From assembly GCA_050084515.1 (NCBI GenBank), contig CM114271.1:47120001-47184000 (forward strand): 64,000 nt of DNA. Direction: 5' to 3'. Source of the DNA: Blasia pusilla (taxonomy: Eukaryota). Both the position numbers and the translations under genes were made by a program. This document shows positions 10,701 through 58,451 of this stretch, one piece after another. Under the pieces are notes generated by a model. It worked only from the letters and a program-made list of their open reading frames with translations, searched no databases and was not told the origin of the DNA. The stretch's first letter is position 1, and each line of letters begins with the position of its first letter.

Positions 10701-10804
10701 AGCGGCAACGGCAGCAGGAGCAGCAGGTCGCATAGATAGTGGACCCGAGAGGTCCGCTCGCGCGCCATCTTGCCCTTCCACGAGCGACGGAGACGCGGCG
10801 TCCT

Positions 10805-21342: not shown

Positions 21343-21360
21343 CCTTAAAATAAGAAAATA

Positions 21361-21529
21361 CTAGCCGGTGCTCGTGCGATGCACGAATGAAACCGGCGCC
21401 GTACCCCTTAACTTAACTATTAGCTCTTGTTAAACCCACCACATGTCTGCACGGGAAGGGCCTAAAATGCATACGTGTCATGCGGAGGAAGCCCAAGCCT
21501 AAAACCCCAGACTCTTTTAATAGTACAGA
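21361..21529 (-). mobile_element. Non-autonomous mini-Helitron (169 bp)
   Basis: Minus strand: A|TCTGTACTATTAAAAG ... TCGTGC-ATC-GCACGA hairpin, 7 nt, CTAG|T. Shows the 5'-TC, 3' hairpin+CTAG, A-T target and no TSD typical of Helitrons. Confidence 0.82.
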
Positions 21530-23742: not shown

Positions 23743-23883
23743 GCGTGGATGAGGGGAGGAGGGCGCTGCAGGAAGGGCAGCGGTAGGGCTGGAAGTGCAG
23801 GGAGCTTGCGGTGGAGCCGAATTGGTCGCGGCAGGGAGAATTGGAAAGGCTAGGGGCCATTGGTGGAGAAGGAGATCGGGAGA

Positions 23884-35310: not shown

Positions 35311-37859
35311 GCCCTTCCTAGCGCACCTAATTTTTGCTTGGTCCCAATTTGTTCTGATATCTTGTACCTTCGCTGCCACAGCCAAACGCTAAAGTGTGTT
35401 CTTGTATGTTCTATGTTGTAGGTTTGATTCTGCGGATGCTTCTTCCGAGCTTCGACTACTGATTCTTGCGTCTTTGCTACCATGGTAGAAGTGTAGTTTC
35501 TCCCTAAACCCAATCTATTCGGATATCTTGCGGCTTCGCTGCCTCAACTTAGCTTGTAGGCTATTATTCTACTATACATCATCGTGGTAATTAGCTCTTT
35601 TTAATATGGGACGTGTGCAAACCTCAAAATATTGCCAAAATTCAAGCAGGCGACCTTTTAGGATAAGTATACTTGACGGTAGAGCTAGGATGAGTTCCAT
35701 CCGATTGTGGGTACTTATCATATTTTCTCGTCTCAAGAAGATGGCTTGCACATCCCAGTGCATGCATTGGGCATGTGCTACTTGTTTCTTAAAGAAATGG
35801 CAAGCTATATGCTCATCCTCTATGAAAAATATGCACTGTTGTGGTTATTGTGGATATGTGCTCTAGTGCAACCCTCATCCAAAGATGGCAGTTCTCGAGG
35901 ATGCATCAAACCCGCCCTATGCATTATGCAATGGGTTTATGAAGGATTATGTCATACCCAGACTATGCCACTATCATGTCTCCGATCTGTGCCTCTAATG
36001 GCCTTCAAACTCATGTCAATGTGTATATGACTCCTTCTTATATCAAGCCTTTACTTCCTTGTAACCCACTTCAACTCCAACTACTATCCATAGTTGACTC
36101 TAGAATTGGAGTTGAAAAGAAATTTAATGGGTTCCATTGAATTTTTTTTAGTTACATCATTCTTAGACTATCCTTTCCTTGGCTTTAACCTTACCAACAA
36201 TGTGGCAAAAATTGAAGCTTCAATGCTACCAAGTATGATGTTACGTCTTTTAGGATAGATCGGTGAGATCTAGTAGAGCGCCTTTGTGAGTAGTGGAGGA
36301 CAGACTCTGTAGGTCGAGGATGACCTGCTGAGGCCCGGGAAACGTGAGAGAGCAGGTTTCCCCTTCGTTTTGGCTCATTTGGAGCCATATTGAAGAACTT
36401 ACTATTTTAGGTAAATACCATTTTGAATATATGATCAATTTTATATTTTTGGTAAGTGCCCCTTGACCTCCTACATCAGGTCAAGAGCCAAGGAGGTGAC
36501 TTGGGAGCATAGGTTACCATGGAGAGAGCTTGGGAGAAGGGAGGAGTATACCTCGAGGAGAGAGAGCTTGAGAACTCATTCTGTCTTTGTTGAACCTCTT
36601 GGCATGAGGCGGCGGAGCTATGGTCTTGCTTGCCTTGTGTGTGTAACCCAAGCCTCTCATTAGGAGAGTGGGTTTGGTTTCACATTAAGAGAGATATGTG
36701 AGAGTGCACACATGTGAGAACTATGGTGTTGTGAGAGAGATTGGATCTTATTTTAAAAGAGAGATTGCCGCTATGGCATTGAGGTTACCCGATGTCGGAT
36801 CCGTGGCATCGACATCATATGGAGCAGCTAGAGATATGGAGGATCCTGGTTGGATGTGCGGGGTTGCCTAGATGGAGGCTGCCGTAGTTGTGACGCGTGG
36901 AGCAGCCACACAGTTGGATCCACAACGAGGGGAAGCCAGGAACAGACTAGGCTTCCTCAATCTTTCATGTTGTCCAAGGCGATAAGGACCCCATCGATAG
37001 GTCTTGATCAGAGTTCCTGGAGAGTTGGTGATGATTTTGGTGTGCCGGCACGGAGGGCGATGGGAGAAGCGAGTGCGACGAATCCTATTGTTGATGCTCA
37101 GGAGGGGCATGTGTCGAGCACGTTGTTGGGGGCGACCACCATTGTGTATCGCGCTCCTTTATTTTCTGCTTCTGATGTTATAATGTTGGAAGGTATGCCC
37201 GTCGAGGTTTTTTGGCTGGCCGCTATGCTATGTGAGCATGGAGTTGGAGTTCTTGCATCATATTCAGAGGTGATTGCAGAGGAGGTGATGGACCTACCCT
37301 TGGAGCGGATGCTCAGGCCCTCCACGTCAGATTCATGTCACGCTGCGGCTCCTAGGATGGCGAAGATGTCCGCTAGACCCGCGATAGAGCGTGCCATGGC
37401 TTCTCCTGGTGTTGTGTTGTTGGATAATTGAGGAGAGGTCTTCCAATTGGTGAGTCCCGGAGATAGAGCTTTTAGTCCGCAACGCGTCTTGTTGGATTCA
37501 GGAGCGCAACCCTTGATGTTGGGGAAAGCGTCATTCAGAGGATTGGGCTTGACGAGAGCCGATGTGGAGCGTTGTCCATTCTGGATACAGACATCCTTGG
37601 GTGGAGCGAGTGCCACACTGTATATCACCCGACAAGAGGTCGCATCAGTCCGCATCACGGCTGCATCAGTCCGTGGAGGAGAGGTGCCGCTTTGGGGCTC
37701 GACTGAGGAGCTTCGACGCTTAGCCACTGAGCATGTGCAGACCGCGTGGAGCGAGACCCTTGCACTAGAGTGTGACGGGTCAGAGAAACCCCAGGTTGAC
37801 AAGAGTGCTGCTATGACCCCTTTGGACACCACCCGATTGTGTGGTGCATCCCAGAGGAG

Positions 37860-40100
37860 GGTATTCAGATGTTGGATCTCTTTGGAGGGATCAGCAGTCG
37901 GCTAGCTGATGTTTTGCACGCTGGAGTGTGCGAGCAACAGTACCTATATGTGGAGATTGATGATGTTACAAGGCACGCTTTACTTCACCATGTGGCGCTG
38001 TTATGCCTCCGTTTTCCCGACTTGTTGTCTACGTCCGCCATTCAGGGTTATCACACTTCCCTACCGAGGGATATTTCATTGTTGGGGGCGCAAGACTTGG
38101 AGCGGGTAGGGACCATAGACTTGGTCATTGCTGGTTGGCTATGTCAGGGCCAATCGAGTGTTGGACAAGGTAGCGGGTTAGTTGACACTCGGTCCCGGTT
38201 GTTTTGGGAGATGATGCGGATCTTGCGACATTTACAGGAGCATCAGCCTCGTTCTCTAGCATGCATTTTGGAGAATGTGCCAATTTTGGGCAATTAGAGG
38301 TCCCGCGTGGTGACCAGTGCACATATGGTGCGCGCATGGATTGGCCCGGCAGTGCTGTTAGATGCGGCGAGTGTAGGTTCTAGAGCACACCGCCCGCGTC
38401 TTTGGTGGACCAACTTGGTACCACATGAGGTATTACGGAGGGCTTATGCGAGAGTGGAGCGTCCCTCCGATTTGTTGGTGGATTCTATATTGGATCCGGG
38501 CCATCGATCACAGGAAATGAGGCACGATGATCGACTGCCGTTGACCTTGGTCAACAGGATTGGCGTGCCACGAGCAGCCTTTCCCACATTGGTGAGTTTT
38601 CCCGCTTCCTATGCATTCAAGGATGCCGGACGTGGCTTGGTTTGGGAAGACCACGTACAGAGGTTGGTGGAGCCTAACGCCAATGAGCGAGAGCGAGAGC
38701 GAGCGATGAGATTCCCCAAAGGGGAATCCCATCTGCGTTTTCTTCATGTTTGTTGCAGATCAGATGTGGAGGCAGGAGGTGAAACCGTTTTCCCAGCATC
38801 GAAGGTTAATGGTTCGACCTTTCCCAACTGGAATGAGTTGTCAAAATGTGCTAAAGCAGGTCTTTCTGTGCAACCTCGAAAGGGAATGGCATTACTGTTT
38901 TGGAGTATGAATCTTGATACAACATTGGATTCTAAGAGTCTTCACGGTAAGTTCCTCGTCGTGTCATAGATGTCTGAGAAGATAGCCTCCTCAGGTGATA
39001 CCCTTTGTGTTCCTTCCAAAACTTGTCGGATGTTGTTAGTAATTGAATTAAATATCTGTGAAGTGGTTTTAGTTAGTGGGTATTAACTCCAGTTCTTCCA
39101 GTTGGGAGTTAGAGTGGTTTCATTTACAAACTTGCTTGTATCCATGAGTTCTTATAGTTTGTCAATGACCGGTCCATTATTCAGTGGTCCTTCATGAGCC
39201 ACTTATCTTAATTTAATGTCATTCTCGTTGTCTCTTCAGGTGGTTTCCCGGTCATTGAAGGAAATAAGTGGTCCGCCACTAAGTGGTTACATGTGAACAA
39301 GTATGCTATGCCCTCTTAAGTATTGCATCTTCTCACTCAAGCTATCTTGTTATCCAACAAAACCGTTGGTTGTAGAGGTTAGGAGGGAATGGCTGTCACC
39401 AGACGGCACTGCATTATAGGTTCTTAATGCTTAATGTCTACAAAGTTATTTTGCAACTATGACTAAGATATGTTATTGTGATTCATTGGGTAAATGATTA
39501 CATTAATCATGCCTCTAGTTCATTATCATTTGTAACTGAAATGCTGATATCTATGTGTTTTTTGCTTGGATTTATGCCCCAGAGTGAAGACGAACCTACC
39601 ATTGTGTAGTGTCTTATCTGACCATCCTTGCATCCAGCTTTGGTACTGCAATCCAATAGTTCAGTTTGTATGTAGCAGTAGGCTCTCTAAATGTATTGAT
39701 GCAGTAGTGTCCCCGTGGTGCCATCAGTACAAGATTCAATCTTATGCTAAGTATGATCAGGTTGTAATTTCCTAGCAGTTGGGATCTTTCCTAGGCAATG
39801 AATTAAGGAAGACCCATTCATACTTTGGAGAACTCTCTAGTTGAGGATGTAGTAAGCTGACCTTCCATGAATGTTATAGTTAGCCCATATATTCAGATTC
39901 ACCTAGGGTGGTTGGAGTTTGTAACTGCTGTTAGGAACATTGAATATAAGAGTCCAACTGTAAATAGGAAGTGATTCCAACGGAGTAAAGGGGACATTTC
40001 ACTTTACACGAAGGAGTCACGGTAGTACCTCACTATTGGAGGCATCACAACGTCATGTCTTGGGTCAAGCGATAGACTTGAACTGCTTGATATGGATTCT
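37860..40100 (+). pseudogene. C5 DNA methyltransferase domain (copy 3), interrupted between motifs IX and X
   Basis: MLDLFGGIS, IDLVIAGWLCQGQS, ILENV, AHRPRLWWTN, ERAMRFP, then 1.3-kb insert, then HVLGQAIDLNCL. Confidence 0.9.
38734..40011 (+). pseudogene. Captured 3' fragment of a plant prolyl 4-hydroxylase gene (two exons, intron, 3' flank)
   Basis: Exon 38759-38946 SDVEAGGETVFP...WNELSKC...ALLFWSM...SLHG; GT-AG intron 38947-39239; exon 39240-39319 GFPVIEGNKWSATKWLHV...stop. Confidence 0.9.
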
Positions 40101-40539
40101 CAGTGTAGGAGTAGCTGAGCAACGTCGTTTGAGGATGCAACTGATCACAAAATTTGCGTTGGTGAGCCCCATGCCTATCGAGACGGTTGAGGCAATGGCT
40201 GGGGGCGAGACCCAAGGAGATCGACACACCAGAGGTGATCGGGAGAGACACCCTTGGACTTGGGATGTTTTGCAGATACGCGAGGAGATGATAGCCACAA
40301 CATCGAGCGTGGTTCCGGGTACTGCACGTGGAGATGAGAGTTCTAGTGTTCGAGACGGGGTTGTACCATAGCAACCACCGACATCCGTGCCAAAGAGTCC
40401 TATCGTAGTCACGATGGAGATTTGGGAGCTAGATATGGGCCATAAGTTGACAGGAGGATAGCAACGTCGGATACACCACTTCCTTAGGAGTTATAAGAGC
40501 TGTTTTGCATTTAGTATGCATGATTTGGGTACGCTGAAG

Positions 40540-41478
40540 GATCCACGGATCCGCATTGAGTTGTCGAGTGACACGCCGATCTTCCAAAGATCCTACAAGT
40601 ACAGTGACATGGAGAGGGCTTTGATTCATAGTAGGAGCCAAGACTTGGTTGGAGTAGGACTAGTAGAGATGTCGCATGGAGAGTATGCATCTGCCAATGT
40701 CATGCCCGCCAAGAAGGATGTGCATGGCAACTGGACGGATAGGCAAATGTGTGGAGATTATCCACCTATCAATCGGCAGAAAAAGTTCGATAGGTATGCG
40801 ATGCCCACCCTTGAGGAGATCTCTGATGCGATTGGGCATGCAAAGGTCTTCAGTTCATTGGATTTGCGAGCCGGATACCATCAGCTGCCTATTAGATTGG
40901 AGGACAGGCAGAAGATGATATTTTGGGGCATCGATCCTCATAGGAAGGATTGTTTGTACTAGTGGCGGTTCTTACCATTCGGGTTAAAAAATGCCCCGGC
41001 TGCACGTCAAGGGTTTTAGTTTGATTGCAAAGCCGCTAACCTTGAAGACCAAGGTGGATCAGGAGTGGCATTGGGGGGATGAGCAAGAGAGAGCATTTCA
41101 AATGCTCAAGGATAGATTGACGTCCACGCCCATATTGAGGAGACCCATCAGGGGGCATCCTTTCCAGTTGCATACCGACTTGGAGCATGTTGGGGCTTAG
41201 AGCTGTGCTCACCCAACATGACAATGATGGTAGAGAGTTCGAGGTTGGCTTATGCTAATCGCTCGAACAACACTGCAGAGGCAAAGTATAGCTCGTATGA
41301 TGGTGAGTGCTTGGCCGTAGTGTGGGTTGTCACACATTTCAGATGTTATCTATTCGACAATCCCTTTACCATCATTAGTGATCATCAGCCACTTAAGTGG
41401 TTGATGGAGTCCGACAAGCTTACAGGGAAGCTTGCAAGATGGGCTCTTTTGTTGCAAGAGTATGACTTCCAGGTGGTG
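40540..41478 (+). pseudogene. RT (partly deleted) and RNase H fragments of copy 3
   Basis: VFSSLDLRAGYHQL, PFGLKNAP, then a jump near 41003 to VKGFSLIAKPL; ARWALLLQEYDF. Confidence 0.88.
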
Positions 41479-44400
41479 TAAATGAATAACCAAATGTGGA
41501 ATGTTGATTAGACACGCTTTCTACCCAATCAGCATATGTGAATCCCTATAATTGAAAACTCAGAGAAGGTTCAAATTGTAGCCCGAATTGAATAGAGAAT
41601 TTCACATACCGCATAATCCTCCTCACAGCATCAAGGTAAGGTTTTCGAGGTGCTTGCATAAACTAGCTCACTAGGCCAACATCATAACTCAAATATGGTG
41701 TGGTTATAGTTAGATAGATCAAACTTCTAACCATGCGCTTGTACATATTAGAATCTGGAAGAAACTCTCCTTCATCCACTCTTAGCTTCACACTCTACTC
41801 CAACCGTGTAGAGATTGGCTTACAAGCCGTTATACCATATTTTGAAAGCATATGAAGAGAATATTATCGTTGTAGTAACCACATGCTCTCTCCAACCTTG
41901 ATAAACTCAATACCAAGGAAGTACTTGAGTTCTCCCAAGTCTTTCATATCAAATTCTGCTTGTAACCTAAGCTTGACTTGTTGTACCATTTCTTTAGTAC
42001 TCCCAGTAATCAGGAGATCGTCAATATATAACACAATGAGAACCGTATGATCTTGTCCTCTCAAGACTTATACCGAGGAGTGAGAATCACATATCCTAAA
42101 ACCCAACTCTTGAAGGACGTATGTAATCTTGCCATACCAAACTCTTGGAGCTTGTTTGAGCTCGTATAGAGCTTTCTTCAATCTGCATACGTGAAATGGA
42201 AACTTGGGATGCTCGTATCCGGGTGGTTGAGTCATATATAACTTCTCGAATAGATCTCCATTCAAAAAGGCATTCTTGACGTCCATGTGATATAATCTCC
42301 ACTTCTTACTTACTATAACTGCAACCACTATTCTCATAGTCGCCATCTTTGCAACATGGCTAAATGTTTCCTCATAATCGATACTATATTGTTGTGCATA
42401 GCCCTTAGTCACCAATCTCGCTTTATATCTTTTAATTGTACCATCTTGATTGCGGTTGATTTTGTAAACCCATTTGCAACCAATAGCTTCCTTACCCGAA
42501 GGTATATCAGCCAGCTCCCTTGTTTGTTGATGTCTTAATGCAGCAAGCTCTTCCTCCATAGCTTCAATCCATTCGACTTTACTTGCAGCTTCTTCAAAAC
42601 AACTCGGCTCCTATTCTTGAAGGGTAGTCATCATATATGCATGATGTGTCGCAAGGAAACCTTCATTTATGAATCTATGAATTGGATGTGTAACTCTACT
42701 TGATCTACGAAGTTGTTGTTTAGAGGTAGATGCCTCTAACACTTGACTCGAGCTCTGACTAGTGTCAACAGATTGAATACGTACTCTTCCCATCCATGGA
42801 CTCACAGATTCAACTGATGAATCTAGAACCTCTCCTAATCTTGCACTAGTACTTGGGGAAGTTGAAGACAATGTCTGTTGGTTTACAATCATATTCTTCC
42901 CCTCACCAAACGAGTGTAGAGGTGGAATAGGCTCAGATGAAGCATACCATGACTTTAGCTCATCAAAGATAATATCCCAACTAATAATAGGCTGCCTAGA
43001 GGATGGAATGTAGCACTTATATCCCTTAGTTCCATCAGCATAGCCAATGAAGATACATCTTTCAGACTTGGGGTCTAATTTCTGACGTCTCTCAGAAGGA
43101 ACATGAACATAACAAATATAGCCAAGTACTTTTAAGAAGGAAAAATTGGGTTTATTTCCTATGAAGACTTCGGATGGAGTTTTATCATGAACTCTTGCTG
43201 TTGGAGTTCGGTTGATTAAGAAGACTGCACATGCTACAATCTGCCCAATACACCTTAGACATGTTCTTCTCATTCAACATAGCTCGTGCCGCTTCAGCAA
43301 TATGTCGATTCTTTCTCTCAGCCACTCCATTTTGTTGTGGAGTGTAACGGCAAGTCACTTGAAGCTGGATGCCATTCTCACGTAAATAGTCATCAAACTC
43401 TGTTGAAAGATGCTCTCCTCCTCCATCCCAACGCAATTTCATAATGTGTTCTCCTGTCTGCTTCTCTACTAGAATTTTGAATGTTTGGAACACAGAGAAT
43501 ACCTCTGACTTGGCTTTTAGAAAGTATACCCATATATACCTAGAGAAGTCATCAATAAATGAAATAAAATACTCGCAACCACTAAGGCTATGTTGTGATG
43601 TTGTCCACATATCATTGTGGATCAACTCCAATATCTTGGATGCTCTTCTACCTTGCTTTGGAAAAGGAAATCTAGCTTGTTTTCCAAATTGGCAAGCAGG
43701 ACATACCTCTAACGTAGTAGGACTCGCTAATTTAGGGAGTCCTATTACTATATTAGATGATGAAAGACTCTGTAATGTTTGAAGATTCATACGTCCAGTT
43801 CTTTTATGCCACACATTCAGATCTATGACTTGTTGGCTGCTTTGACCATACAGTGTTGTTTGAATCTCTAGCATAGAAACATCTAATTTGAAAATTCTGC
43901 CAGATCTAGTTCCTTTGGCTATCGTAGTCTGGTCGTCCATTGTTTCAATGAAACAACCATCTGCGTTAAACTTCGCTTGATAACCCTCTTCTACTATTTG
44001 TCCTATAGAGATCAGGTTTCTTGCAATGGTAGGAATATAGAAAACATTTCCAAGAGCACAAAGACCATCTGATGCTATTGGAACTTTACCGGTATGCGTG
44101 ATATGCTATTAAGTGTCATCTCCTCTAAGCACAATTGCAAGATCTTTCACCGGCTCCAAACTAGTGAACCATTTATCTTGTGAGATCATGTGATTTGATG
44201 CACCAGAGTCAATGTACCAATCTGCTGTCGAGTCTTTCTTGACCATTGCTCCCATATGATGAGTCATAACCAAGAGATGCTCCGTTTGTGAATGTTGTTG
44301 TTCTTGGTACTGCTCTTGGTGTTGTTGCTCCACATAGTTTTGTTGTTGTAAGGCTCTTGTTCTCATATCTACCTTCTTCTTGAAGCAAAACTTTGCATAG

Positions 44401-45739
44401 TGATCCTTTATCCCACAGTAATTGCAAGATCCAGAGATCCTCTACTATTGACCTCGACCCCAACGGTTTCCACGGTTTACCTTGTGATTGTGTCTGGTAC
44501 TAGTTCTTAGTTGATTGAGTGATGTTATATTGAGTGCCTCTTCCTCCATATGCTCGATATCCACCACGACCACGGAAGCTTCTACCACGACCCCTGCCTC
44601 TGTTTGATCCATGATCTGCAAATAGCGCACTCTCTTGCAGACTAGACGAGCAACCGCTGCCTACTAGGCGTATCTCTTCACTGATTAATAGAGTGACTAA
44701 CTCTTGAAAGGTTGGATACTTCTCTCTCATAGAGATAGAGGTCTCAAAGGACTTGTAATCCTTTGGAAGGCCTTGAAGAGTGAACAAGATCAGATCAACA
44801 TCTTATACTGTCACTCCAATGCTATTCAACTGATCAACAATATGTGTGATATTCAAAATATAATCAATGATGCTCTACAATCCTTTCCTCACTTTGTTCA
44901 ATTGCTGTTTCAATTGAAGCTTTCAGGCCTTTATAGATGTCTGGAACAGCTTTTCCAATGCATCCCAGGCTTCCTTTGGAGTATCAACATCTTGAATGTG
45001 ACCTATCATTGGCGAACTGATCGTTATTGAAATATGATGGATTACTTGCCTTGTGCATTTGTTCTAGGCGCGAACATTCAAGTTTGTTGAGTCACATTTT
45101 GGCTTGGCCTCATCACCTGTGACAAGCTCCCATAGTTCTTGACCCATGAGAAATTTTTTCATGCGAAACTTCTAGACATTGTAATTCTTCTTATCTAGCT
45201 TCTCGCTTATGATTGCTGTTGAGGAATACTCCATGACAAACGATTTCACTCAGAAAAACATAATTTCAGGCTCTCTATTGCTCCAATTGAAGCATAGACC
45301 ACTCATACACAGAAATTGATATGAAATTTTCCAAAATTGATCAATTGTATGAAAGAACTAGTTGAAATTGACGTGTAGAGAGCAAACTGCATAACTTTTC
45401 TTCACTAATTGTACTTTCCTACACTGAAATTGCTACTGCAGCAACTCAGAATGTCAAAATTGAGCAATTTTGGATGTGTTGGAAAGCTCTCGACAAGCTC
45501 TATCAGAAAGCTAGAACATGTTTTTGGTGACATTCTAACCGATGCGGATTTAGATGGCTTAATCGATCGGGAAAGCCCTAAACAATGCCTCCAAAGTTTT
45601 ATCACTATCAAAGCTCCACCTGAAATCTACACCCATTTAGCTCTGAAAAAAAATTTCCTTCTCCCAAACTGAAATTGTGCCTTCTCTTGCCTCTCTTCTC
45701 TCCTCAAACACCAAGAATTTCAAGTGATATTCTCTTATC

Positions 45740-45751
45740 GCTCTGATACCA
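45740..45751 (-). promoter_or_regulatory. Primer-binding site (initiator tRNA-Met) of the Copia element
   Basis: TGGTATCAGAGC on the minus strand directly after the LTR-terminal CA. Confidence 0.92.
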
Positions 45752-46260
45752 TGTGGAAAACTGCTAAACAAGCATAACTAGTGGAAAACGGCTCTCACAC
45801 ACACACACCACCATGGAGAACGAAATTTGCAATGAGAGAATGAGTGGAGGCTAGTTCCCTTCTCAATTATATAGGGTATGTACAAGCAACCCTAACCCTA
45901 ATCTTAACCATAGTCTCGAGTTAGACTAACTATGATTAACTAACCATAGTTAAGATAATCTTGCTTAAGTGACTAACCAAGATTAAGCTTCTCTACTTCG
46001 TGTGAGTACCAAATGTAACAGTTTAGGTATCTCATGAGCTTGACTATAACTCAATCTTCAATATGGCGCAAGTTGGTGATCGAATATTATACGGAAGTGG
46101 ATACGGTGGACATCCTTAGACGCATGGTCATCATGGCGTTGGATCCTCATAGCTTGCGCTTAACTCACTAACCAAGATTAAGCTTCCCTACTTCATATGA
46201 GTACCAAATATAGCAGTTCATGTGTCTTATGAGCTTGAGTGTAACTCAATCTTTAATACA
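45752..46260 (-). repeat. Copia 5' LTR with an internal ~87-bp direct repeat
   Basis: TG...CA boundaries; ACTAACCAAGATTAAGCTT...AACTCAATCTT at ~45972-46058 and ~46167-46253. Confidence 0.85.
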
Positions 46261-46559
46261 CTAGAGCTCGTTGGCATGGTGAGAGTAATGAGGAGTTGGT
46301 GCTAGGATGGCATGCGTCAGCCTATTTGGGCTTGTTGGCTATGGAGAGCTTGATTGCTGAGACTTCGATGGCGAGGTCTGATGGAGAGTCCTTAGATCCA
46401 GAGGTTGGTGAGGGACGACAGGTGGCCGAGACATTCACGACGATGGAGTGGTCTTGGAGTACCTGCGTACTAGCAGCGTCACAAGCACAGTGGGTGCTAG
46501 AGAGCGGGATCGAATCCTACAGCGAGCGAGACGGTTTTGATGGGGGGCACACATGTGTT

Positions 46560-47268: not shown

Positions 47269-48399
47269 TGTCGTACGCATACACATTGCTACACAACATA
47301 CATTGCTGTCATCGAACACACACACAAACACGCACGATCCCATGCTAACTCATGGCATCCAAACAATGAGACAAGAAGTACTAAAATATCTCCAATAAAG
47401 TAAGATCTAATCTCTCTCTACACCATCTCACACCATAACTCTCAAAGGTGTGCACTCTCTCTCATGTCAAACCAAACCCACTCTCTTAATGAGAGGCTTG
47501 GTTACACTCACAAGGCAAGGGACCATAGCTCCACCGCCTCATGCCAAGAGGTTCAACAAAGAGAGAATGAGCTCTCACGCTCTCTCTCCTTGAGGTATAC
47601 CCCTCCCCTCTCCCAAGCTCTCTCCATGGTAACCTATTCTCCCAAGTCACCTCCTTGGTTCTTGACCTGATGTAAGAGGTCAAGGGCCACTTACCAAAAA
47701 TATAAAGTTGATCATATACTCAAAATGGTAATTACCTAAAATAGTAAGTTCCTCAATATGGCTCTAAATGAGCCAAAACAAAGAGGAAACGTGCTCTCTC
47801 AGGTTTCCCAGGGCCTCAGCAGGTCATCCTCGACCTACTGAGCGTGTCCTCCACTACTCACGAAGGCGCTCTACTAGATCTCACCAATCTATCCTAAAAG
47901 ACGTGACAACTGTTGTGCGCATACACATCGCTACACAACATACATCGTTGTCATCGAACACATACACAAACACGCACGATCCCATGCTAACTCATGTGAG
48001 AGGTGGCATGAGACATGCCATATGCAGAACCACACAACATACAACGCAAGCCTGTAGGAACTACTGCTAAGCTTGGATCTACTGTACCATCAATGTTAGG
48101 AAGGTGACATGACGCACAATTACGCACATGGTCCTTCCATACCATACCATCGTGTCCCTCCAGCAAGAGAACACCGGATGGCAAAACGTCACGCACTCTC
48201 AAGATAGTGCGCCATGCAGTCACATCCAACGTCGTCGGTGCCGTCTGCTGCAAGTAGACATAATCTCCTCGATGAAACTTCCGGATAGTTGGTCGATAAC
48301 CACCACCCAGAATAGTCACATACCTCAACGTATCTTGATGTTGCGCAATCGCCAAGTTCTCGAACATCATGGGCATCACTCTCTAAAACAACTCAACCC

Positions 48400-49160
48400 T
48401 CTGAGAACATGCTCGCACCCATACATCTGGGTCATCAAGGTCCACCACCTCACCAGCACCTCGACGAATGGCCGCAGGTAAATCTGGCTCTCGGCCATAA
48501 AGTAGCAAGTACGGTGAAAAAGACGCTAAGGATGCCTACCTGCTGAATCTGTATCCCATCGCCAACCATGGCAACTGGAGGTCCCAATCTCCTAGGTGAC
48601 CTCTCTGCAAGCCATACTTGTGTAAACCCCTCTTCATCGTCGGCACAACTCTCTTTGCTAACCCATCCGCCTTGAGATGATCTAGCGAAGTCGTGCGATG
48701 GTTGATCATCGCCTGATCACACAAGGCCTAGAACTCACCGCGAAACTCGGTACCTTGGTCTGTCAACACCTCAGCCGGTGCGCCATAATGACTCAGCACT
48801 GTGTCAAGGAAGGCATAAGCTACTCCCTCACTCGCTTTGTCAGGCAATGGAGCCAACTCGATCCACTTCGAGAAGTACTCGACCATCACCAACACATAAC
48901 AACTATGATGCTCCGTCAAAGGCAAAGGTCCTGCAAAATCCAAACTCCATCTATACCCTAAGCCCATGATTGGTAATGGATGCAACTGTGGAGTTGGAGC
49001 ATTGAACGATGCTCGGACCCGATCACACACCATGCATCTAGCAATAAACTGCTGAACGTCATTCTGCATGCCTCACCACCAATACTGAATCTGGAGCAAC
49101 CTCTACGTCCGCTTCACCCCAAAGTGACCCAACTCCTCGTGGGCATGCTGCACTAGTTGT
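48400..49160 (-). pseudogene. DDE integrase with HHCC domain (copy 2)
   Basis: HAHEELGH..CMVC; WSLDFAGPLP; VLTDQGTEF; DGLAKRV; WDLQLPWLAMGYR. Confidence 0.92.
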
Positions 49161-49539
49161 GCTCTCTACAAAGGATGCGGCACTACGCATACTCTACCAT
49201 CCTCCCAAACCCTCAAAACATGTGTCCCCTCCCAACGGAACCGTCTCGCCTACTGTAGAATCCGATCCCGCTCTCTAGCACCCACGGTGCTCGCAACGCT
49301 GCCAATACGAAGGTACTCCAAGACAACTCCATCATCATGAATATCTCGGCCATCTGTCGTCTCCACACTGGCCTTGGGATCCAAGGACTCTCCACTAGAC
49401 CTCGCCATCGAAGTCTCCACACTCTGGTTCCCCATAGCCAACATGCCTAAATAGGCTAACGCGTGCCATCCTGACACTGACTCCTCATCACTCTCTCCAT
49501 GCCATCGAGCACCAATCACATCTCGCTGACTCGGGCATG

Positions 49540-50830
49540 GGTTACGACTCAACCCATCAGTATCCTGGTTGAGCATCCCAGGTCTATGTACCACCTGAAA
49601 ATCATACTCCTGCAACAACAGAGCCCATCTTCCAAGCTTCCCTGTAAGCTTGTCGGACTTCATCAACCACTTCAGTGGTTGATGATCAGTGATGATGGTA
49701 AAGGGGTTGCCAAATAAGTAACACCTAAAATGCGTGATAGCCCACACTACAGCCAAGCACTCACCCTCATACGAGCTGTACTTTGCCTCTGCAGCGATGT
49801 TCAAGCGGCTAGCATAAGCCACCACAAACTCTCTACCCTCATCATCATGCTGGGTGAGCACCGCTCCAAGCCCTAACATGCTCCAATCTGTGTGCAACTG
49901 GAAAGGACGCCCCCTGATCGGTCTCCTCAAGATAGGCGCAGATAGCAACCTGTCCTTGAGCAACTGAATTGCTCACTCTTGCTCATCCCCCTAGTGCCAC
50001 TCGTGATCCACCTTGGTCAGCAAGGTCAACGTCTTTGCAATCGAACTGAATCCCTTGACATCGCCGATAGAAGTTCGCCAATCCCATGAATGCGTGAACA
50101 CGGCTCATATTTGTAGGGCATGGAATGCGTGAGATAGCCTCTACCTTTGTCTGTTGAACACCAAGGCCCCCTGGGTATATCGTATGACCCAAGTACTCAA
50201 TCTGGTCATAGAAGAACTTGCACTTGCCTAGATGTAGCTTCAGCCCATGTAATTGCAATTGTCGAAATACCTCCTCTAGTTGTCCCTTATGCGCCTCAAC
50301 TGTGGCGCTAAAGACTACGATGTCATCAATATAACACCTAGCAAAATCCAGACCAGCCAAGATCCTATCCATGACCCTCTGAAACTCAGCCAGGGCGTTC
50401 TTTAACCCATGGTAAGATCCGCCACTGGTACAAACAATCCTTCCCGTTAGGATTGATACCCCAAAATACCGTCTTCTGCATGTCCCCCAAATATGATAGG
50501 CAGCTGATGGTATCCGGCTCACAAATCCAATGAACTGAAAACCTTTGCATGACCAATCGCATCAAAGATCTCCTCAGGGGTGGGCATGGCATACCTATCA
50601 AACTTTGTCTACCAATTGATAGGTCGGTAATCTCCACACATCTGCCTATCTGTCCAGTTGCCATGCACATCCTTCTTGGCACGCATGACAATGGCAGATG
50701 CATACTCCCCATGCGACATCTCCACTAGTCCTGCTCCAACCAAGTCCTGGCTCCTACTTTGAATCAGAGCCCTCTCCATATCACTGTATCTGTAGGGTGG
50801 TCGGAAAATTGGCGTATCATCGACAACTCA
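49540..50830 (-). pseudogene. RT + RNase H (copy 2)
   Basis: GLKNALAEFQRVMD, CYIDDIVVFS, KCKFF, FQLHTDWS, ITDHQPLKWL, RWALLLQEYDF. Confidence 0.93.
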
Positions 50831-51329
50831 ATGCGGATCCCCGGTCCCTTCAACGTATCCAAATCCTCCATGCTAAATGCAAAGCAGCTCCTATAACTCA
50901 TGAGGAACTGATGTATTTGGCGCCGCTCTCCTCTTGTCAGCTTAGGGCCCATATTTGGCTCCCAAGTCTCCATCATGACTACGGTAGGACTCTCCGACGC
51001 AGATATCGGCGGTTGCTATGGTGCAACCCCGTCTCGAACAAAAACACTCGACCGCTCTCCTGCAGCCAAATGCAAACTCTGATCTCCTCCACATGCAGTG
51101 CCCGGAACCACGCTCGATGCTGTGGCTATCATCTCCTGGCGTACTTGCAAAACATCCCAAGAAGTCCAAGGGTGTCTCTCTCGATCTCCCCTAGTGTGTT
51201 GATCTCCTCGGGTCTCGCACCCAGCCACTGCCTCCACCGTCTCGGTAGGCATGGGGCTCACCAACGCAACCGCTGTGATCTGTCGCGATCTCATCCGATG
51301 CTACTCAACCACTCCCAAGCTAAAGATCC

Positions 51330-52265
51330 ATGTCAAGCAATTCAGGTTCATCGCGTGACCCAAGACATGGCGTCGTGATGCCTCTGATACTAACGGGACT
51401 GCCGTCACTCCAGGGGAAAATCCCATCGCCCGCTCTCTCTTGTTGGCATTGGGCTCCACCAACCTCTAAACCAGGTCATCCCAAACCAAGCCAGGATCGG
51501 CCTCCTTGTATGCATGGGAAGCGGGAAAACTCACAAACGTGGGAAAGGCTGCCCGCGGCTTGCCTACCCTGTTGACCATAGTCAACGGTGGTCGATCATT
51601 GTGCCTCATTGCTTGTGATCGCCGACCTGGATCCAGAATGGAATCCACTAACAAATGGGAGGGTCGCTCCACTCTTGCATACGCCCTCCGTAACACCGCA
51701 TGGGGCACCAAGTTGGTCCACCATAGACGTAGGCGATGGGCTCTAGAAACTACACTCGCCGCATCCAAGAACACTGCAGGGCCAATCCAACACACACCTG
51801 ATGAGCACTTGTCACCACTCGTGACCTAGAGTCTCCTAAGATGGGCACATTCTCCAGAATGTAGGCTGGAGAATGAGACTGATGCTCTTGCAACTGCCGT
51901 AAGACCCTCAACATCTCCCAAAACAACCTGGAACAAGTATCAGCCAACCCGCTGCCTCGTTGAGCACTCGATTGGCCCTAACATGGCCAACCAGAAATGA
52001 CCAAATCAATGGTCCCTACCCGCTCTAAGTCCTGCGCCCCCAACAACGAAATATCCCTCGGTAGGGAACTCTGGTATCCCTGTACTGCGGACGCAGACAA
52101 TAAGTCGGGAAAACGTAGGCGTAATTGCGCCACATGTCATAGTGAGACGCGCCTCGCAACATCATCACTCTCCATATACAGGTATTTTTGTACTTGCACT
52201 CCTGCCTGCAAAACATCAGCTAACCCGGTGCTAATCCCTCCAAAGAGATCAACACTCGAATACCC
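51330..52265 (-). pseudogene. C5 DNA methyltransferase domain (copy 2)
   Basis: DLFGGISTG, GWPC, SRLFWEMLRVL, YILENV, AHRLRLWWTN; stops and frameshifts. Confidence 0.9.
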
Positions 52266-53699
52266 TCCTCCGGGGTACACCACACAATGGGTGTGGTATC
52301 CAAGGGTGTCATTGTAGCACTCCCTGCTACCTCGGGTTCCTCAGACCCGTCATGCTCCGGTGCAAACGCCTCACTCCACGCGGTTTGCACGTGCTCATCT
52401 GCCAATCGTCGAGGCTCCTCAGTCGAGCCCCATAGCGGCACCTCTCCTCCACGGAATGATGCGGCTATCATAACACTCCTCTCCATAGAAATTTCAGGAA
52501 CATGAGTATCCTCTGCATGGACATGTTCCTCAATCAAATCACTAGGCCAAGTGATGGCACTGCTAAATGCTGCTAAGGTCGCCATCTCTCCTGGCCGTTG
52601 CTCGATCACTACACATATGAATCGAACCGGTAATGAGCTAAGGCGCCCATCACCTGACTGCCATCCTAGTCTGTAGGACGCTGACTCTTCCCACTAATCC
52701 AGGGAAATCCCCATCGGGTATAACACTGCCCCACCAACCAAGACGTCGTAGGACTCTGCATCAGCCACTATCGCCTTGGCTCGCACCATGGACTCATCTG
52801 TAGGATGTCCAGGCCCAATCCTCACCACGACCTCATGTCGGGTGACATACTATGTGGCACTCGCTCCACCCAAGGATGTCTGTATCCGGAATGGACAACA
52901 CTCCACATCGGCCCTCGTCAAGCCCAATCCTCTGAACGACGCTTTCCCCAACATCAGGGGTTGCGCTCCTGAATCCAACAAGACGCGTTGCGGACTAAAA
53001 GATCTACCTCCCGGACTCACCAAGTGGAAGAACTCTCCTCGGTTATCTAGCAACACAACACCAAGATAAGCCATGTCATGCTCTATCGCGGGTCTAGCGG
53101 GCATCTCCGCCATTCTAGCAGCCGCAGCCTGCCATGAATCTGACGTGGACGGCCCGAGCATCCGCTCCAAGGGCAGGTTCATCACCTCCTCCGCAATCAC
53201 CTCTGAACTTGTTGCAAGAACTCCAACTCCACGCTCACATAGCATAACGGCCAGCCAAAAAGACTCGGCGGCATACCCCCCAACGTCATAACATCGAAGC
53301 AGAAAATAAAGGAGCGCGGTACACAATGGTGGCCGCCCCCAACAACGTGCTCGACACATGCCCCTCCTGAGCATCAACAATAGGAGTCGTCGAACTCGCT
53401 TTTCCCATCGCCCTCCGTGCCTGCACACCAACAACGTCACCAACTCTCCAAGAACTCTGATCAAGATCCATCGATGGGATCCTCATCGCCTCAGACAACA
53501 TGAAAGACTGAGGAAGCCTAGTTTGTTTCCTGGCTTCCCCTCGCTATGGATCCAACTCTGCGGCTGCTCCACGAGTCACAACTGCGGCGGCCTCCATCTG
53601 GGCAACCCGGCACATCCAACCAAGATCCTCCATATCTCTAGCTACTCCCTATGATGTCGATGCCACGGATCCGGCATTGGATAATCTCAATGCCATAGC

Positions 53700-55400
53700 G
53701 GAAATCTGCTCCTGTAGCTGATGTATCTGAGCAGCCATCCTAGCCTCACGCCCGGCATCTCCCTTGACGCGTCTAGGTGGTAGGACTCTACCTCCTCCAC
53801 AGCCAGCTCCACCACCCTGTCGGGCAACTCCAGCTCTTCGTTCCCCAATGGGACCACTTGGTGCACGATGTCTACGCCCACCCGGACCGTCTACTCGCTC
53901 TGGTGCCCTCTCTAGTCCTCGGTCCGGACGTAACTCAGGATGTAAACTGAAACACCTGGCGCATGTATGACCATACCTCTGAAAATAGTCACACTGATAA
54001 CCTCCTGGTACAGCACCATCTCCTCTTCCATGCTAAGGCACACGTCCATGACTCTGACGAGTGCAATCGCGCTGATGATGGGCTCCACCACATGACCAAC
54101 AAGTAATAGTAGGCGTCTGCTGGTGAGTGGCATATGAAGACGCGGGTCTCTATGGCACAACCTCCCGGTATCCTCCCTGAGCTCGTGGTGCCATAGTCGA
54201 CCTATCTTGGAGTCCACGTTGCTGCACAAGTCGTGCAGACAACAATCTCGACTGCTCTCGCCAAGAACCCATGGTGGCTACGCTCTCCTCTGCCATGTTG
54301 CGCTCAATGTTCTCGGCGGTTCTAAAAAAATCTCTCAACGTAAGGGAGGTGTTCATAAGAAGCACCCCTTCCCGCACCCGTGTTCGCAAGGTCCGGTTCA
54401 GCATTGCGTACCATGACTGGATAGCCTGAGCCTCTGTCACCCCCTGAGTGATGTAGATCAACCGGCGCAAGCAAGTGTAAGCCTCACGCAAAATCTCACC
54501 CGGGCGCCTCTGGAAGTCGTGGATGCTCCGCAACTTCTTTGTCTGTACCCCTTGGTAGCTCGCCCTCAACTCAGCAAAGAACTCAACCACGGGGTTGAAC
54601 CTAGGACGAACCCGACTAGATGGTGCAACTGCTCCAATGCAAGTAACCCCTCCTAAAACATCACTAGTGGAAGACGAAGTAGCCTCTCCTAACTCCTCCT
54701 CCTCGTCTGGGAATGGCTCTGTCCATGATACGTAATGTGGGTCGTAGTAGAGTCGCCATGCCTCAATCTCCTAGGCATATCTGTAGGAGAACTCATGGTA
54801 ATCGTCCATGGGTGCCCCCTCTAAATGTTGGAACATACCGTTCCATGCTATAAACGGATTGAACTCTCTAGATTTCCTAGCCCACTGTGAGTCACATCAA
54901 CTCCTAAACTCCGCAATGAAGTCGTGTAGCTCTATGGTGCCGACAGTACCCGAAAACCAACGCGGTCCCCTTCCCCGGTCGTCCATCTCGTACGCCCAAC
55001 TAGTAGGACCACTCAATGTGTACGGTGGATCACCAACACACTCCTCTACATGCTGCCCCTCGTCTGAAGACGACACAAAAGGAGATCGAGGTGGTCTCTC
55101 ACGTGGAGACCCTCGAAACCTCGCACCACTCCGCATAACCCTCCAGAGCTACTCTCAGGTCCACTACCTCGCCTGAAAGGACGCCGTGAAAATCCGGAAA
55201 GGCCTTCGTGATGGCCTGAAAGGATGCCGTGATGGCCCTCGTGCCCCTCTCACACGATCACTCTCAACCTCGCGAGTAATCCCTCAATCACTCATCCCAA
55301 ATATGCGGCACTCGATCTACACTCTCCCTCCCCAAGACGTGTAACGTGCGGCAACAAGCGGCGTGGTGCGGCAAATCGACCAGGCTATCATCTCATCGAC
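53700..55400 (-). pseudogene. Gag (copy 2)
   Basis: Colinear with 17780-19400; degenerate zinc knuckle CDYFQRYGHTCARC near 53950-53992. Confidence 0.78.
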
Positions 55401-55906
55401 AACCTACCCTCAACTCCGGACATCCCACACAGGTCTCTCTACCCTAAACCACATACATAAATGATGCTCTCAACATCCACACAACCCAAGATCCCCAAAT
55501 AAACTACCCAAATCCCAGAATCCCTCATGCATGTAGGGTAAAGGACCACAATGGGTAACCTGAACACATGTTGATGTCGCTCCTCAACAACTGCAAATCT
55601 CAACCCCAACTCGGTCGTGGAGACAAACTCCTCAAACAAAAAAAACACAATCAGCTCCACAATGACGGTGCGGCTCCGCGATCGAGACGGTGCGGTGCGG
55701 CCAAGAGCGGCACGGCGCGGCAATCGGCGGTGCGTTGCGGTTACGGGCGTCACGTCATGGTACTCAATCTTCGTGGAACGGCTACCAACTCAAAACATAG
55801 TAATGCGGCTAGAAAACTTGGACCCCATAAATCACTGGGTCACACGTCGTCTAGAGTAGTACTCCACTCGGTCGACGGAAGCTTGACAGGTAATGGGCCA
55901 GTTGAC

Positions 55907-56233
55907 GGGTTGGAGGGCATGGCGAAGGGTTGACGTCTTGGCGAAGGGTTGATGGCCAGGCGAAGGGTTGACGGCTTGGCAAAGGGTTGACGGTCTCGCC
56001 GAAGGGTTAACAATCTGGCCGAAGGGTTGACGTCCTGGAGAAGGGTTGACGACATGGCGACAGGTTGACGTCGTGGAGACGGGTGGACGGCCTGGTGACG
56101 GGTTGACGTCCTGGCGACGGGTTGACGGCCTAGCGACGGGTTGACGGCCTGGTAACGGGTTGACGGCCTGGCCAAAGGGTTGACGTCTTGGCAACGGGTT
56201 GACGGCCTAGCGACGGGTTGGTGGTCTGGCCGA
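55907..56233. repeat. Minisatellite, ~17 copies of a 19-20-bp unit, in the leader of copy 2
   Basis: Consensus GGGTTGACGGCCTGGCGAA/C repeated head to tail. Confidence 0.93.
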
Positions 56234-57082
56234 TGGCGACGGCGACGGCACCGCCAATGGCGGCTGCTGCTTTAGGGTTTTGATTTTTACCCTAAAATTG
56301 GATGTTACAAAATTGGCTATAACTTTCTGCTCAAAATTCAAATTGTGCACTCTTTATTGCACAACGTGCACAGCTTCACGATCTACGATGGCGTCAAAAA
56401 ATATTTGGAATTGGACATTCCAATAAAAACTTACAAGGACTGTCGTAAAGCCCAATGTCTCTTTCTCCTACACAGAATTTAGCAGCGCTTCCGCGCTGAT
56501 TTCTCCCAACAAAAATGTAAAACCTGTAAAAATACAAAGTAACAAGCTACATGGTGCTCCCGAGAGCACCGGCATGGGGCAACCTTCCCCCATACTCAAT
56601 CCCTATCAAAAATTGGGCAGCGCTTCCGCGTGCCACTCTTCTACACGAGAAATCGGCAAATGCAAAGAACAATCAAAGCAGCCCTTGGTCCGGCGAGCAC
56701 TCCCATGAGCCGCTGAATGGGGAACACGGTCCCCAACCTGAAAAAACAACGAGTGACCAGCCAGCTCCCCCATGAAGCTCTCTCATTCTCTCATTCTCTC
56801 TTTGTAAAGCAAGATCCAATCTCCCTCTACACCATCTCACACTATAGCTCTCAAAGGTGTGCACTCTCTCTCATGTCAAACCAAACCCACTCTCCTAATG
56901 AGAGGCTTGGATTACACACAAGGCAAGCAAGACGATAGCTCCGACGCCTCATGCCAAGAGGTTCAACAAAGAGAGAATGAGCTCTCAAGCTCTCTCTCTC
57001 TCTCTCTCCTTGAGGTATACCCCTCCCCTCTCCCAAGCTCTCTCCAACCACCCGGATACGAGTATCCGGGTGGTTGAGTCCG

Positions 57083-57526
57083 GCGCAACATCAGGATATA
57101 TGGAGGTATGTGACTATTCGGGGAGGTGGTTATCGACCTACTATCCAGAGGTTTCATCATGGAGACTATGTCTACTTGCAGCAGACGGCACCCACAATGT
57201 TGGATGTAACTGCAGGGCGCACCATCTTGAGAGTGCGTGAGGTTTTGCCATCCGGTGTTCTCTTATTGAAGGGACAAGATGGTATGGTTTGGAAGGACCA
57301 TGCGCATAATTGTACGCCATGTCATCTTCTGAACATTGACGGTACAGCTGATTCGAGCTTAGCAATAGTTCATGCCAACTTGCGGTGTATGTTGTGTGGT
57401 TCCGCCCGTGGTGCAACCACTATGCTAGTCTGTGATGGAGGCTCGAGAGGATGGCATATGGCATGTTTGATGCCACCTCTCACTAGAGTTCCTCAAGGAC
57501 AATGGATGTGTCCTAGATGTAGATAG
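57083..57526 (+). pseudogene. Integrase C-terminus and PHD finger of copy 3
   Basis: FHHGDYVYL...LRCMLCGSARGATTMLVCDGGSRGWHMACLMPPLTRVPQGQWMCPRCR-stop. Confidence 0.9.
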
Positions 57527-57706
57527 AGTAGATAGTTCTACATTCCGACTTGTGTCTGTGACATGGATGACAAGAAGGTGACAAACGATGCGGCCACATG
57601 AGCACCCGACCTTCTTGCTCTTAACGTCCGAGAGATGTATGTCATGGTAGGTAGGGATAGATGGCTATCTGGAGTTAGAGGGACCTAACCACCAGCTAGG
57701 GGGTGG

Positions 57707-58447
57707 ATTGGAGATATTTTGGAACTTCTTGTCTCGTTGTTTGGATGCCATGTCGTGTGTGTTTTGTGTGTGTTCGATGACAGCGATGTATGTTGTGTAG
57801 CGACGTGTATGTGCACAAAAGCTCTCACGTCTTTTAGAATAGATCGGTGAGATCTAGTAAAGCGCCTTTGAGAATATTGGAGGACAGGCACAGTAGGTTG
57901 AGGATGACCTGCTGAGGCCCCGGGAAACCTGAGAGAGTAGGTTTCCCCTTCGTTTCGGCTCATTTGGAGTCATATTGAGAAACTTACTATTTTAGGTAAG
58001 TACTATTTTGAATATATGATCCGTTTTCTATTTTTGATAAGTATCCCTTGACCTCCTACATCATGTCAAGAGCCAAGGAGGTGACTTGGGAGCATAGGTT
58101 ACCGTGGAGAGAGCTGGGGAGAGGGGAGGAGTATACCTCAAGCAAAGAGAGCTTGAGAGCTCATTCTCTCTTTGTTGAACCTCTTGGCATGAGGCGGCGG
58201 AGCTATGGTCTTGTTTGCCTTGTGTGTGTAACCCAAACCTCTCATTAGGAGAGTGGGTTTGGTTTGACTTTGAGAGAGACATGTGAGAGTGCACACATGT
58301 GAGAACTATGGTGTTCTAAGAGAGATTGGATCTTATTTTGATTGTAGATATTTTGGTACTTCTTGTCTCGTTGTTTGGATGCCATGAGTTAGCATGGGTC
58401 ACTGTCACCGAACAGCAAGTTGTGTAGCAATGTGTATGCGCATGACA
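57707..58447 (+). repeat. 3' terminal A-B-A repeat block of copy 3
   Basis: A 57707-57820, B 57823-58340 (matches 36239-36754), A 58341-58447 with internal rearrangement; preceded by G-rich AGGGGGTGG. Confidence 0.9.
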
Positions 58448-58451
58448 ATGA

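Follow-up and report, generated by a model that had tools for sequence, protein, structure and literature searches.

Ty3/Gypsy-type retrotransposons with a B-ORFs-A-B-A repeat layout in Blasia pusilla: probable integration as a circular permutation opened at a palindrome in U3

RESULTS

Three copies with one repeat layout

We analyzed a 64,000-nucleotide (nt) stretch of the Blasia pusilla genome (assembly GCA_050084515.1, contig CM114271.1, positions 47,120,001 to 47,184,000 of the forward strand), hereafter called the window, by self-blastn comparison and direct reading of element ends. The window harbors three related retrotransposons. Read in element orientation, each starts with a repeat B of ∼512 bp that stands alone and ends with A-B-A, in which A measures ∼108 to 128 bp. 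The layout B-ORFs-A-B-A (ORF, open reading frame), which a preliminary description had proposed from the sequence, was thus found in all three copies (3/3). Positions below are those of the window, and strands are given as + or −.

Copy 1 (11539 to 21342, −), which lies outside the interval covered by the preliminary description, is a complete permuted element with the order B, primer-binding site (PBS), internal region, polypurine tract (PPT), A, the dinucleotide AC, B, and A, all on the − strand. Its 5′ B (20831 to 21342) starts with TGTCACG and contains a TATA-like motif (∼21034 to 21031) and, 175 nt before the end of B, a predicted self-primer and start of the R region (21005 to 20991). 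The predicted self-priming PBS adjoins the 5′ B (20816 to 20830) and is complementary to positions 338 to 352 of B at 14 of 15 positions. The coding region (12502 to 19006) is degenerate, with many stops, and comprises gag-like, protease, DNMT3-like methylase, reverse transcriptase (RT), RNase H (13905 to 14594), integrase, and PHD finger segments. A polypurine-like G-rich tract, GGGGGCG (12310 to 12316), lies directly 5′ of the inner A (12182 to 12309), which we read as the beginning of U3 in the one long terminal repeat (LTR) that is complete. At the inner junction (12173 to 12185), the A end TACA, the dinucleotide AC, and the B start TATCACG form a decayed version of the palindrome GACA-GC-TGTC. 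The 3′ B (11667 to 12179) is joined precisely to the outer A (11539 to 11666), which ends in CGACA.

The host copy (36239 to 58447, +), described previously as the third copy, is interrupted by a Copia-type fragment and by a nested copy. Its 5′ B (36239 to 36754) starts with TGTTACG and is followed by a remnant of the PBS (36755 to 36764); self-blastn revealed a 3-kb deletion just after this B. Toward the 3′ end, the G-rich tract AGGGGGTGG precedes the inner A (57707 to 57820), and the inner junction reads AAAA-GC-TCTCACG (57817 to 57829), followed by the 3′ B (57823 to 58339) and by the outer A (∼58341 to 58447) with the end TGACA. The outer ends TGTT and GACA are flanked on both sides by ATGA (36235 to 36238 and 58448 to 58451, +), in agreement with the TG...CA ends and ATGA flanks reported earlier for this copy. 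The Copia-type fragment (∼41478 to 46263, −; matches to RVT_2, rve, gag_pre-integrs, and SH3_retrovirus) interrupts the host copy within its RNase H region, and its approximate borders are the points where homology with copy 1 breaks off.

The nested copy (47269 to 57046, −), formerly copy 2, is inserted in the integrase region of the host copy. It consists of the outer A (47396 to 47269), the 3′ B (47908 to 47397), the junction AACA-GT-TGTCACG (47914 to 47902), the inner A (∼47996 to 47911), and, at the other end, the PBS (56805 to 56791), which matches the self-primer at 15 of 15 positions, and the 5′ B (57046 to 56806). The inner A and the 5′ B are both truncated, as had been noted before. 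The 5′ end of the nested copy and ∼235 bp of host-copy sequence are missing at the joint where the host copy resumes, and this joint is filled by an inverted repeat (57046 to 57075), the 14-bp arms of which are perfect and enclose a 2-nt loop; it resembles the trace left by repair or excision. The 5′ leader of the nested copy also contains a tandem array in a 19-bp register (55870 to 56250), in which two frames are open on the element strand; copy 1 has no such array.

Within copies, the two B repeats were 90.6% (copy 1), 92.0% (host copy), and 89.3% (nested copy, over 244 bp) identical by self-blastn, and the two A repeats were 89.7% (copy 1) and 93.2% (nested copy) identical.

Encoded proteins

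With tblastn, homologous polyproteins covered copy 1 without gaps from 19006 to 12502, and the domain order mapped along the copy was gag, protease, DNMT3-like methylase, RT, RNase H, integrase (zinc finger plus rve core), and PHD finger. Pfam matches of the window ORFs comprised C5 DNA methylase (PF00145), RVT_1, RT_RNaseH, rve, and PHD; those of the homologue P0030 comprised RVT_1, RT_RNaseH, Integrase_H2C2, rve, and PHD, and in the homologue P0029 an aspartyl protease precedes the methylase. The order protease-RT-RNase H-integrase, the rve (DDE) core, and the zinc-binding N terminus of the integrase fit Ty3/Gypsy (Metaviridae). The 1.8-kb leader of copy 1 (19006 to 20816) held only two element-strand ORFs of at least 80 amino acids (aa), both without Pfam matches.

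Absent from the preliminary description was the DNMT3-like C5 cytosine methyltransferase domain, which lies inside pol between protease and RT. It was matched at 16098 to 16637 and 15714 to 16094 (−), at 37800 to 38966 (+), and at 51469 to 51825 (−); the solved structures that matched best were DNMT3A, 3B, and 3C (lowest E value, 1.7e-08), and PF00145 was also present in homologous proteins. The integrase C terminus carries a PHD finger (12529 to 13011, −, and 57014 to 57526, +), and this domain (PF00628) is conserved in many metagenome relatives. Chromoviruses carry a chromodomain at the integrase C terminus; here, Pfam found no chromodomain at this place in window ORFs or homologues, the PHD finger standing there instead. 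The nearest named proteins came from Calypogeia fissa, Marchantia polymorpha, and Sphagnum fallax, and members of the family turn up frequently in liverwort and moss data.

A second, diverged family in metagenome contigs

Scanning of metagenome contigs with an alignment of the methylase yielded 73 loci. We compared the 32 loci of at least 9 kb with themselves and searched all 73 with A and B, and 38 of the 73 had matches. The elements recovered form a family of their own, with a B of ∼338 bp and an A of 115 bp. This A is ∼77% alike to the window A over its 3′ part only, and no match was found between the B repeats of the two families.

Four metagenome elements are full-length with the form B-internal-A-B-A (L030, L040, L061, and L062), and three other 3′ ends also carry A-B-A (L015, L033, and L059), for a total of seven complete ends; at L005 the 3′ end was lost after A-B at the end of the contig. 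Nine distinct loci (L020, L026, L027, L028, L037, L041, L052, L066, and L070) end in a single A followed by unrelated sequence and so have the form B-internal-A; L049 has the same 3′ flank as L027, and L047 has a partial B ahead of its last A. At the 5′ side, the 20 distinct metagenome ends included none with A before B, and B-A-B was seen neither at these 20 ends nor at 2 window ends. The 5′ end was B alone at all 22 of these ends, and the 3′ end was A-B-A or A alone. Two equal LTRs at the element ends, a mark of Ty3/Gypsy elements, were therefore not a feature of the integrated copies. A different repeat pair was seen at L051, where direct repeats of 787 bp (1394 to 2180 and 8441 to 9225, 94% alike) downstream of the methylase match resemble the ordinary LTR pair of another, nested element.

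One might suppose that an ordinary LTR element was rearranged once and then multiplied by segmental duplication or passive copying, with no role of the layout in transposition. All copies are old, with repeat identities of 89 to 94%, and full of stops, which this origin would accommodate. It is already contradicted, however, by flanks that differ for every copy at exactly the same two termini, mostly with a 4-bp duplication of their own (see below), by the insertion of one copy within another, and by the occurrence of the layout in two families with unmatched B repeats. Furthermore, the two B repeats of one element tend to be each other's closest relatives: they were reciprocal nearest neighbors in three of five elements, and B identity was 92.9% within elements versus 89.2% between elements. 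This fits the production of both B repeats from one template in each cycle. For A, identity was 92.5% within versus 90.9% between elements, and at 115 nt this repeat is too short to show whether A1 and A2 are nearest relatives. We consider a single rearrangement scarcely credible. The preliminary description had argued against a chance rearrangement from the recurrence of the layout in three diverged copies, and the independent flanks and the two diverged families strengthen that argument, with the layout being heritable in the mobile unit.

Termini and target-site duplications

Twelve elements had both ends available. They start with T(G/A)T(C/T)A(T/C)G and end with (G/A)ACA, with the terminal consensus TGTC(A/G)TG...C(A/G)CGACA. 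A 4-bp target duplication was perfect in 8 of the 12, agreed at three of four bases in 3, and agreed at none in 1. When the right flank was shifted by 4 to 25 bases as a control, only 1 of 264 comparisons gave a perfect 4-bp match. The duplicated words vary between copies, and duplications of this kind are a signature of staggered cutting by a DDE enzyme and argue against insertion by a tyrosine recombinase. The 4-bp duplication described earlier for the host copy was thus confirmed and recurs in most of the elements, but copy 1 has none at the corresponding boundaries, its flanks being AAGG and CTAC (0/4). Just past the 3′ end of copy 1 (9915 to 11250), imperfect tandem repeats occur together with low-complexity open frames rich in Gly, Arg, Glu, and Ser, a repeat block that may bear on the missing duplication of this copy.

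Tyrosine-recombinase retroelements (PAT, TOC1, and Ngaro; DIRS order) carry the gene for such a recombinase and are not known to duplicate their target. The copies described here share with them the split direct repeats. In passages of a published account, split-direct-repeat elements have the geometry A1-internal-B1-A2-B2, and DIRS elements are stated to make no target duplication (PMC8969392). The present geometry is the same with the letters swapped, and in both, joining the two outer termini would reproduce the inner junction. On these grounds, and given the similar layout in the figure legend for KnitGypsy-Dnmt3 (PMC5890265, Fig. 4c legend; see Discussion), one could propose a DIRS/PAT/Ngaro-type cycle in which other elements supply, in trans, a tyrosine recombinase that inserts a closed circular cDNA, and in which the DDE integrase plays no part. 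We regard this as very improbable. Apart from the duplications, which were perfect in eight elements and near-perfect in three more, the termini are TG...CA inverted repeats, and relatives from liverworts, a moss, and metagenomes have kept the zinc-finger/rve integrase and the PHD finger. A Pfam scan of 20 window ORFs and 8 homologous proteins returned no tyrosine recombinase (PF00589), so that of the features of the DIRS order the elements have the split direct repeats and lack the recombinase and the duplication-free insertion. Two further statements of the preliminary description, that the integrase is of the DDE type and that no tyrosine recombinase is visible, are therefore upheld by the rve matches in the window, by Integrase_H2C2 and rve in the homologue, by the negative PF00589 search, and by a duplication of the length expected.

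A-GC-B as a single LTR

The inner junction always consists of the end of A, two nucleotides, and the start of B. In eight metagenome copies, the two nucleotides were GC in four and AT, AT, AC, and TC in the others; in the window they were AC (copy 1), GC (host copy), and GT (nested copy). The consensus GACAGCTGTC is a perfect 10-bp palindrome (GACA-GC-TGTC), and most variants from it are transitions. We read this pattern as pointing to a 2-nt spacer that is inherited. The alternative that the spacer is newly made in each cycle was rejected on account of the GC majority and of the position of most variants, as transitions, at would-be CG/CHG cytosines of the palindrome.

On the left, both families have a conserved G-rich polypurine tract, AGGGGGG(C/T)G, that abuts the inner A at its start. 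On the right, the 15 to 17 nt that immediately follow the 5′ B show complementarity to a stretch of B located 173 to 176 nt before its end. Besides the pairing of 14/15 (copy 1) and 15/15 (nested copy) in the window, 10 to 15 of 15 positions pair at 10 of 16 metagenome 5′ ends (at least 11 at nine of them), with perfect 15/15 matches in L046 and L062. The pairing sequences are entirely different between the two families, and in L066 both partners have changed, with TGTAG and CTACA in place of CATAG and CTATG, an instance of covariation. A TATA-like motif is found 24 to 29 nt upstream of the self-primer stretch in most copies. Inspection by eye found no TGG-starting, tRNA-type PBS abutting B; there is also no purine-rich tract before B and no PBS-like complementarity after A.

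A PPT to the left of A-GC-B, a self-priming site to its right, and a predicted promoter and start in B suggest that A-GC-B is a canonical LTR. A and B would then be two parts of this one LTR and not two independent split repeats, as they had been taken to be. With the LTR so defined, a PBS after the LTR, a PPT before it, and a short target duplication are all present as in Ty3/Gypsy elements, and judged from sequence the arrangement of PPT and self-priming site appears to be that of self-priming Gypsy elements. The 4-bp duplications, by this definition, are located at the palindrome and not at the LTR tips.

We also considered three other definitions of the LTR. If it were B-A, the internal region would fall inside the 5′ LTR. 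If A were the whole LTR and B the interior of a miniature element, a TGG-type or complementary site would be required after A, where there is none. If it were B alone, the outer A would be left aside, which in every copy belongs to the mobile unit. All three were rejected.

Transcription

Three raw-read RNA runs, which carry one species label that is the same as that of the best-matching DNA runs, were mapped to 11300 to 21600 at a likeness of at least 80%. Each run gave 7112 to 7468 reads on this interval; most were <95% alike and thus derive from other copies. First-mate depth was higher on the + strand than on the − strand in nearly every bin, usually ∼tenfold, which corresponds to element-sense RNA if the libraries are of the usual stranded kind, and depth climbed from ∼14 to ∼190 toward the 3′ end. 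The A-end/B-start junction was crossed by 8 to 12 RNA reads per run (joint 21342 to 11544). No RNA reads were found on the five displayed joints that lead from B end to A start, which were represented by DNA contigs only. This pattern agrees with a transcript that has A-GC-B as U3-R and does not read through into the outer A.

The RNA reads also included a 1054-nt skip across the RT region (14099 to 15154; 3 to 23 reads per run), which appeared in none of the displayed DNA contig rows and could stem from splicing, from a subgenomic RNA, or from transcription of copies with a deletion. In the DNA run X1, the summed contig depth over B (20588 to 21275) was ∼10-fold the depth over the internal parts. 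Although such depth does not measure copy number, the difference hints at many solo B-containing remnants in the genome.

Other features of the window

ORFs with Helitron_like_N and PIF1-helicase matches at 71 to 547 and 60363 to 61163 suggest Helitron remnants at both ends of the window. An uninterrupted ORF of 865 aa (23854 to 26451) matched Golgin_A5 (E 5.8e-13) and could be a host gene lying between the transposon copies.

DISCUSSION

A model for permuted integration

Building on the observed layout, termini, duplications, domains, PPT and PBS positions with covariation, and sense transcription, we propose that the element is probably a Ty3/Gypsy-type LTR retrotransposon that is integrated as a circular permutation opened at the U3 palindrome GACA-GC-TGTC. 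The cleavage of this palindrome by integrase, the cDNA forms, and the fate of the two products are all inferred. U3 would comprise A, GC, and the first part of B with the TATA-like motif, and R-U5 would be the last ∼175 nt of B, such that the transcript would start inside the 5′ B and end in the 3′ B.

Self-priming is well established for Tf1, in which the 5′ end of the RNA folds back onto a site adjoining the LTR. Minus-strand synthesis would be primed here in the same manner, with the RNA 5′ end folding back onto the 15 to 17 nt after B, and plus-strand synthesis would begin at the G-rich tract directly before A. Reverse transcription of this ordinary kind would yield [A-GC-B]-PBS-internal-PPT-[A-GC-B]. 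Published passages describe such self-priming for Tf1/Sushi and predict it for the plant Tcn1 clade (PMC6317226), and the site after the LTR here is likewise complementary to the predicted 5′ end of the transcript and not to a tRNA. Tf1/Sushi and Tcn1 elements differ in having two equal LTRs and usually a chromodomain, whereas the present elements have a permuted copy and a PHD finger.

The departure from the ordinary cycle would come at integration. Joining to the chromosome would proceed via the 10-bp palindrome in U3, which integrase would use in place of the LTR tips. Nicks 3′ of CA on both strands would leave two recessed CA-3′OH ends with 2-nt 5′ overhangs, the usual shape of processed retroviral ends, and these ends would be inserted with a 4-bp stagger. 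If a cDNA with a head-to-tail two-LTR junction were opened at the PBS-side palindrome, the product would be B-internal-A-GC-B-A, which retains one whole LTR and would stay replication-competent. A one-LTR circle, or a linear cDNA trimmed at both palindromes, would instead give B-internal-A, which lacks a 3′ R and would be dead on arrival. The preliminary description had suggested an unusual replication architecture; what appears unusual is the point at which the DNA is opened for integration, and reverse transcription itself need not be out of the ordinary.

In the alternative that we keep as the main rival, reverse transcription itself would yield a linear DNA of the form GC-TGTC...GACA-GC by unusual priming or template jumps between the A and B repeats, a route that resembles models drawn for split-repeat DIRS-like elements. 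Integrase would then only trim 2 nt, with no circle and no internal cleavage. Termini with a 2-nt GC beyond CA would be canonical integrase substrates; moreover, the occurrence of only one of the two mirror layouts is more easily obtained from a directional polymerase process than from cutting of a symmetric circle. The B|A joint, which was precise in six of seven metagenome copies, is also what template switching would give. However, no purine-rich tract precedes B and no PBS-like complementarity follows A, whereas the PPT next to A and the self-priming site next to B, with its covariation, sit exactly where a canonical LTR element has them. The fillers at the B|A joint, one of 18 nt in L040 and several different ones in DNA contigs of run X1 (with short sides and hence weak evidence), resemble end joining more. 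We therefore view a polymerase-level origin of the permuted DNA as unlikely, though clearly less so than a tyrosine-recombinase cycle.

Several observations weigh against opening at the palindrome as proposed above. A symmetric two-LTR circle opened at either palindrome should also give the mirror form B-A-B-internal-A, which was seen at none of the 22 5′ ends; by rough estimate, its rapid loss by recombination fits poorly with 11 B-internal-A-B-A versus 9 B-internal-A elements. The B-internal-A form could itself come from A/A recombination in B-internal-A-B-A and does not independently prove the route from a one-LTR circle or linear cDNA. No target duplication flanks copy 1, 6 of the 16 metagenome 5′ ends have lost the self-primer stretch or carry it in mutated form, and all examined copies are degenerate and full of stops. 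The cDNA forms, the transcript start, and the poly(A) site are predicted rather than observed; with 344-nt depth bins, a likeness threshold of 80% on an old copy, and assignment of B and A reads to the best-fitting repeat, placement of transcript starts and ends is beyond the resolution of the RNA data.

Comparison with known systems

The earlier characterization of the architecture as possibly undescribed goes too far. KnitGypsy-Dnmt3 of Klebsormidium nitens combines a DIRS-type repeat layout with Gypsy domains (de Mendoza et al. 2018, PMC5890265, Fig. 4c legend), so that the repeat layout on a DNMT-Gypsy element is already known. As far as the legend goes, the two share both a Gypsy polyprotein with a Dnmt3-type methylase inside pol and the DIRS-like repeats. 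They differ in host: the nearest named proteins here are from liverworts and moss, and no Klebsormidium-named protein was among the 32 and 58 homologous proteins listed. In the text consulted, PMC5890265 gives no termini, duplication, PPT/PBS, or mechanism for KnitGypsy-Dnmt3, and its supplements may hold more. Within the library searched, this was the only relevant paper, with no other paper naming KnitGypsy-Dnmt3 and none describing termini, duplication, PPT/PBS placement, or mechanism. The family in bryophyte-type genomes is thus a new member of the kind, and a canonical LTR element integrated via an internal palindrome would be a new reading, one that still needs experimental proof.

Copy-out, paste-in insertion sequences (ISs) of the IS3 family form circle junctions, in which a DDE enzyme cuts and inserts abutted inverted ends a few base pairs apart with production of a short duplication. 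The likeness is one of logic only; IS3 elements are DNA-only, without reverse transcription or LTRs. Closer in enzymology, the integrases of foamy virus and HIV-1 cleave palindromic LTR-LTR junctions, as reported in two papers (PMC1180852 and PMC1905944), and a DDE integrase would likewise act here on an internal palindrome of two abutted ends. In those viruses, the palindrome arises only after ligation of the tips, has a 4-nt spacer, and leaves the tips as the normal substrate; in the present elements, it is fixed in U3, has a 2-nt spacer, and seems to be the only site used.

Significance

Textbook LTR retroelements have two equal LTRs, the tips of which are the substrate of integrase. The family described here has a PPT, a PBS, and a DDE integrase that look normal, yet two equal LTRs never appear in its chromosomal copies. 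The preliminary description had foreseen that standard LTR finders would place the element boundaries wrongly, and we concur: such programs would mis-bound and also mis-date these elements, because neither B...B nor A...A is an LTR pair. The DNMT3-like methylase carried by the elements matters, in addition, for plant epigenetics.

In its widest form, the proposal is that a DDE-integrase Gypsy lineage found widely among bryophytes has shifted integration away from the LTR tips and now uses a fixed palindrome in U3, with insertion as a circular permutation being obligatory and with only those products that contain an LTR-LTR junction still able to replicate; we would give this an even chance of being correct. 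If true, a retroviral-type integrase would routinely work from an internal palindrome, an activity so far regarded as a side reaction on two-LTR circles, and this would explain why about half of the insertions, those of the form B-internal-A, would be born dead. The family would then represent a stepping stone between LTR elements and split-repeat DIRS-like elements, and its retroviral-type integrase would have converged on the logic of tyrosine-recombinase retroelements and circle-junction ISs.

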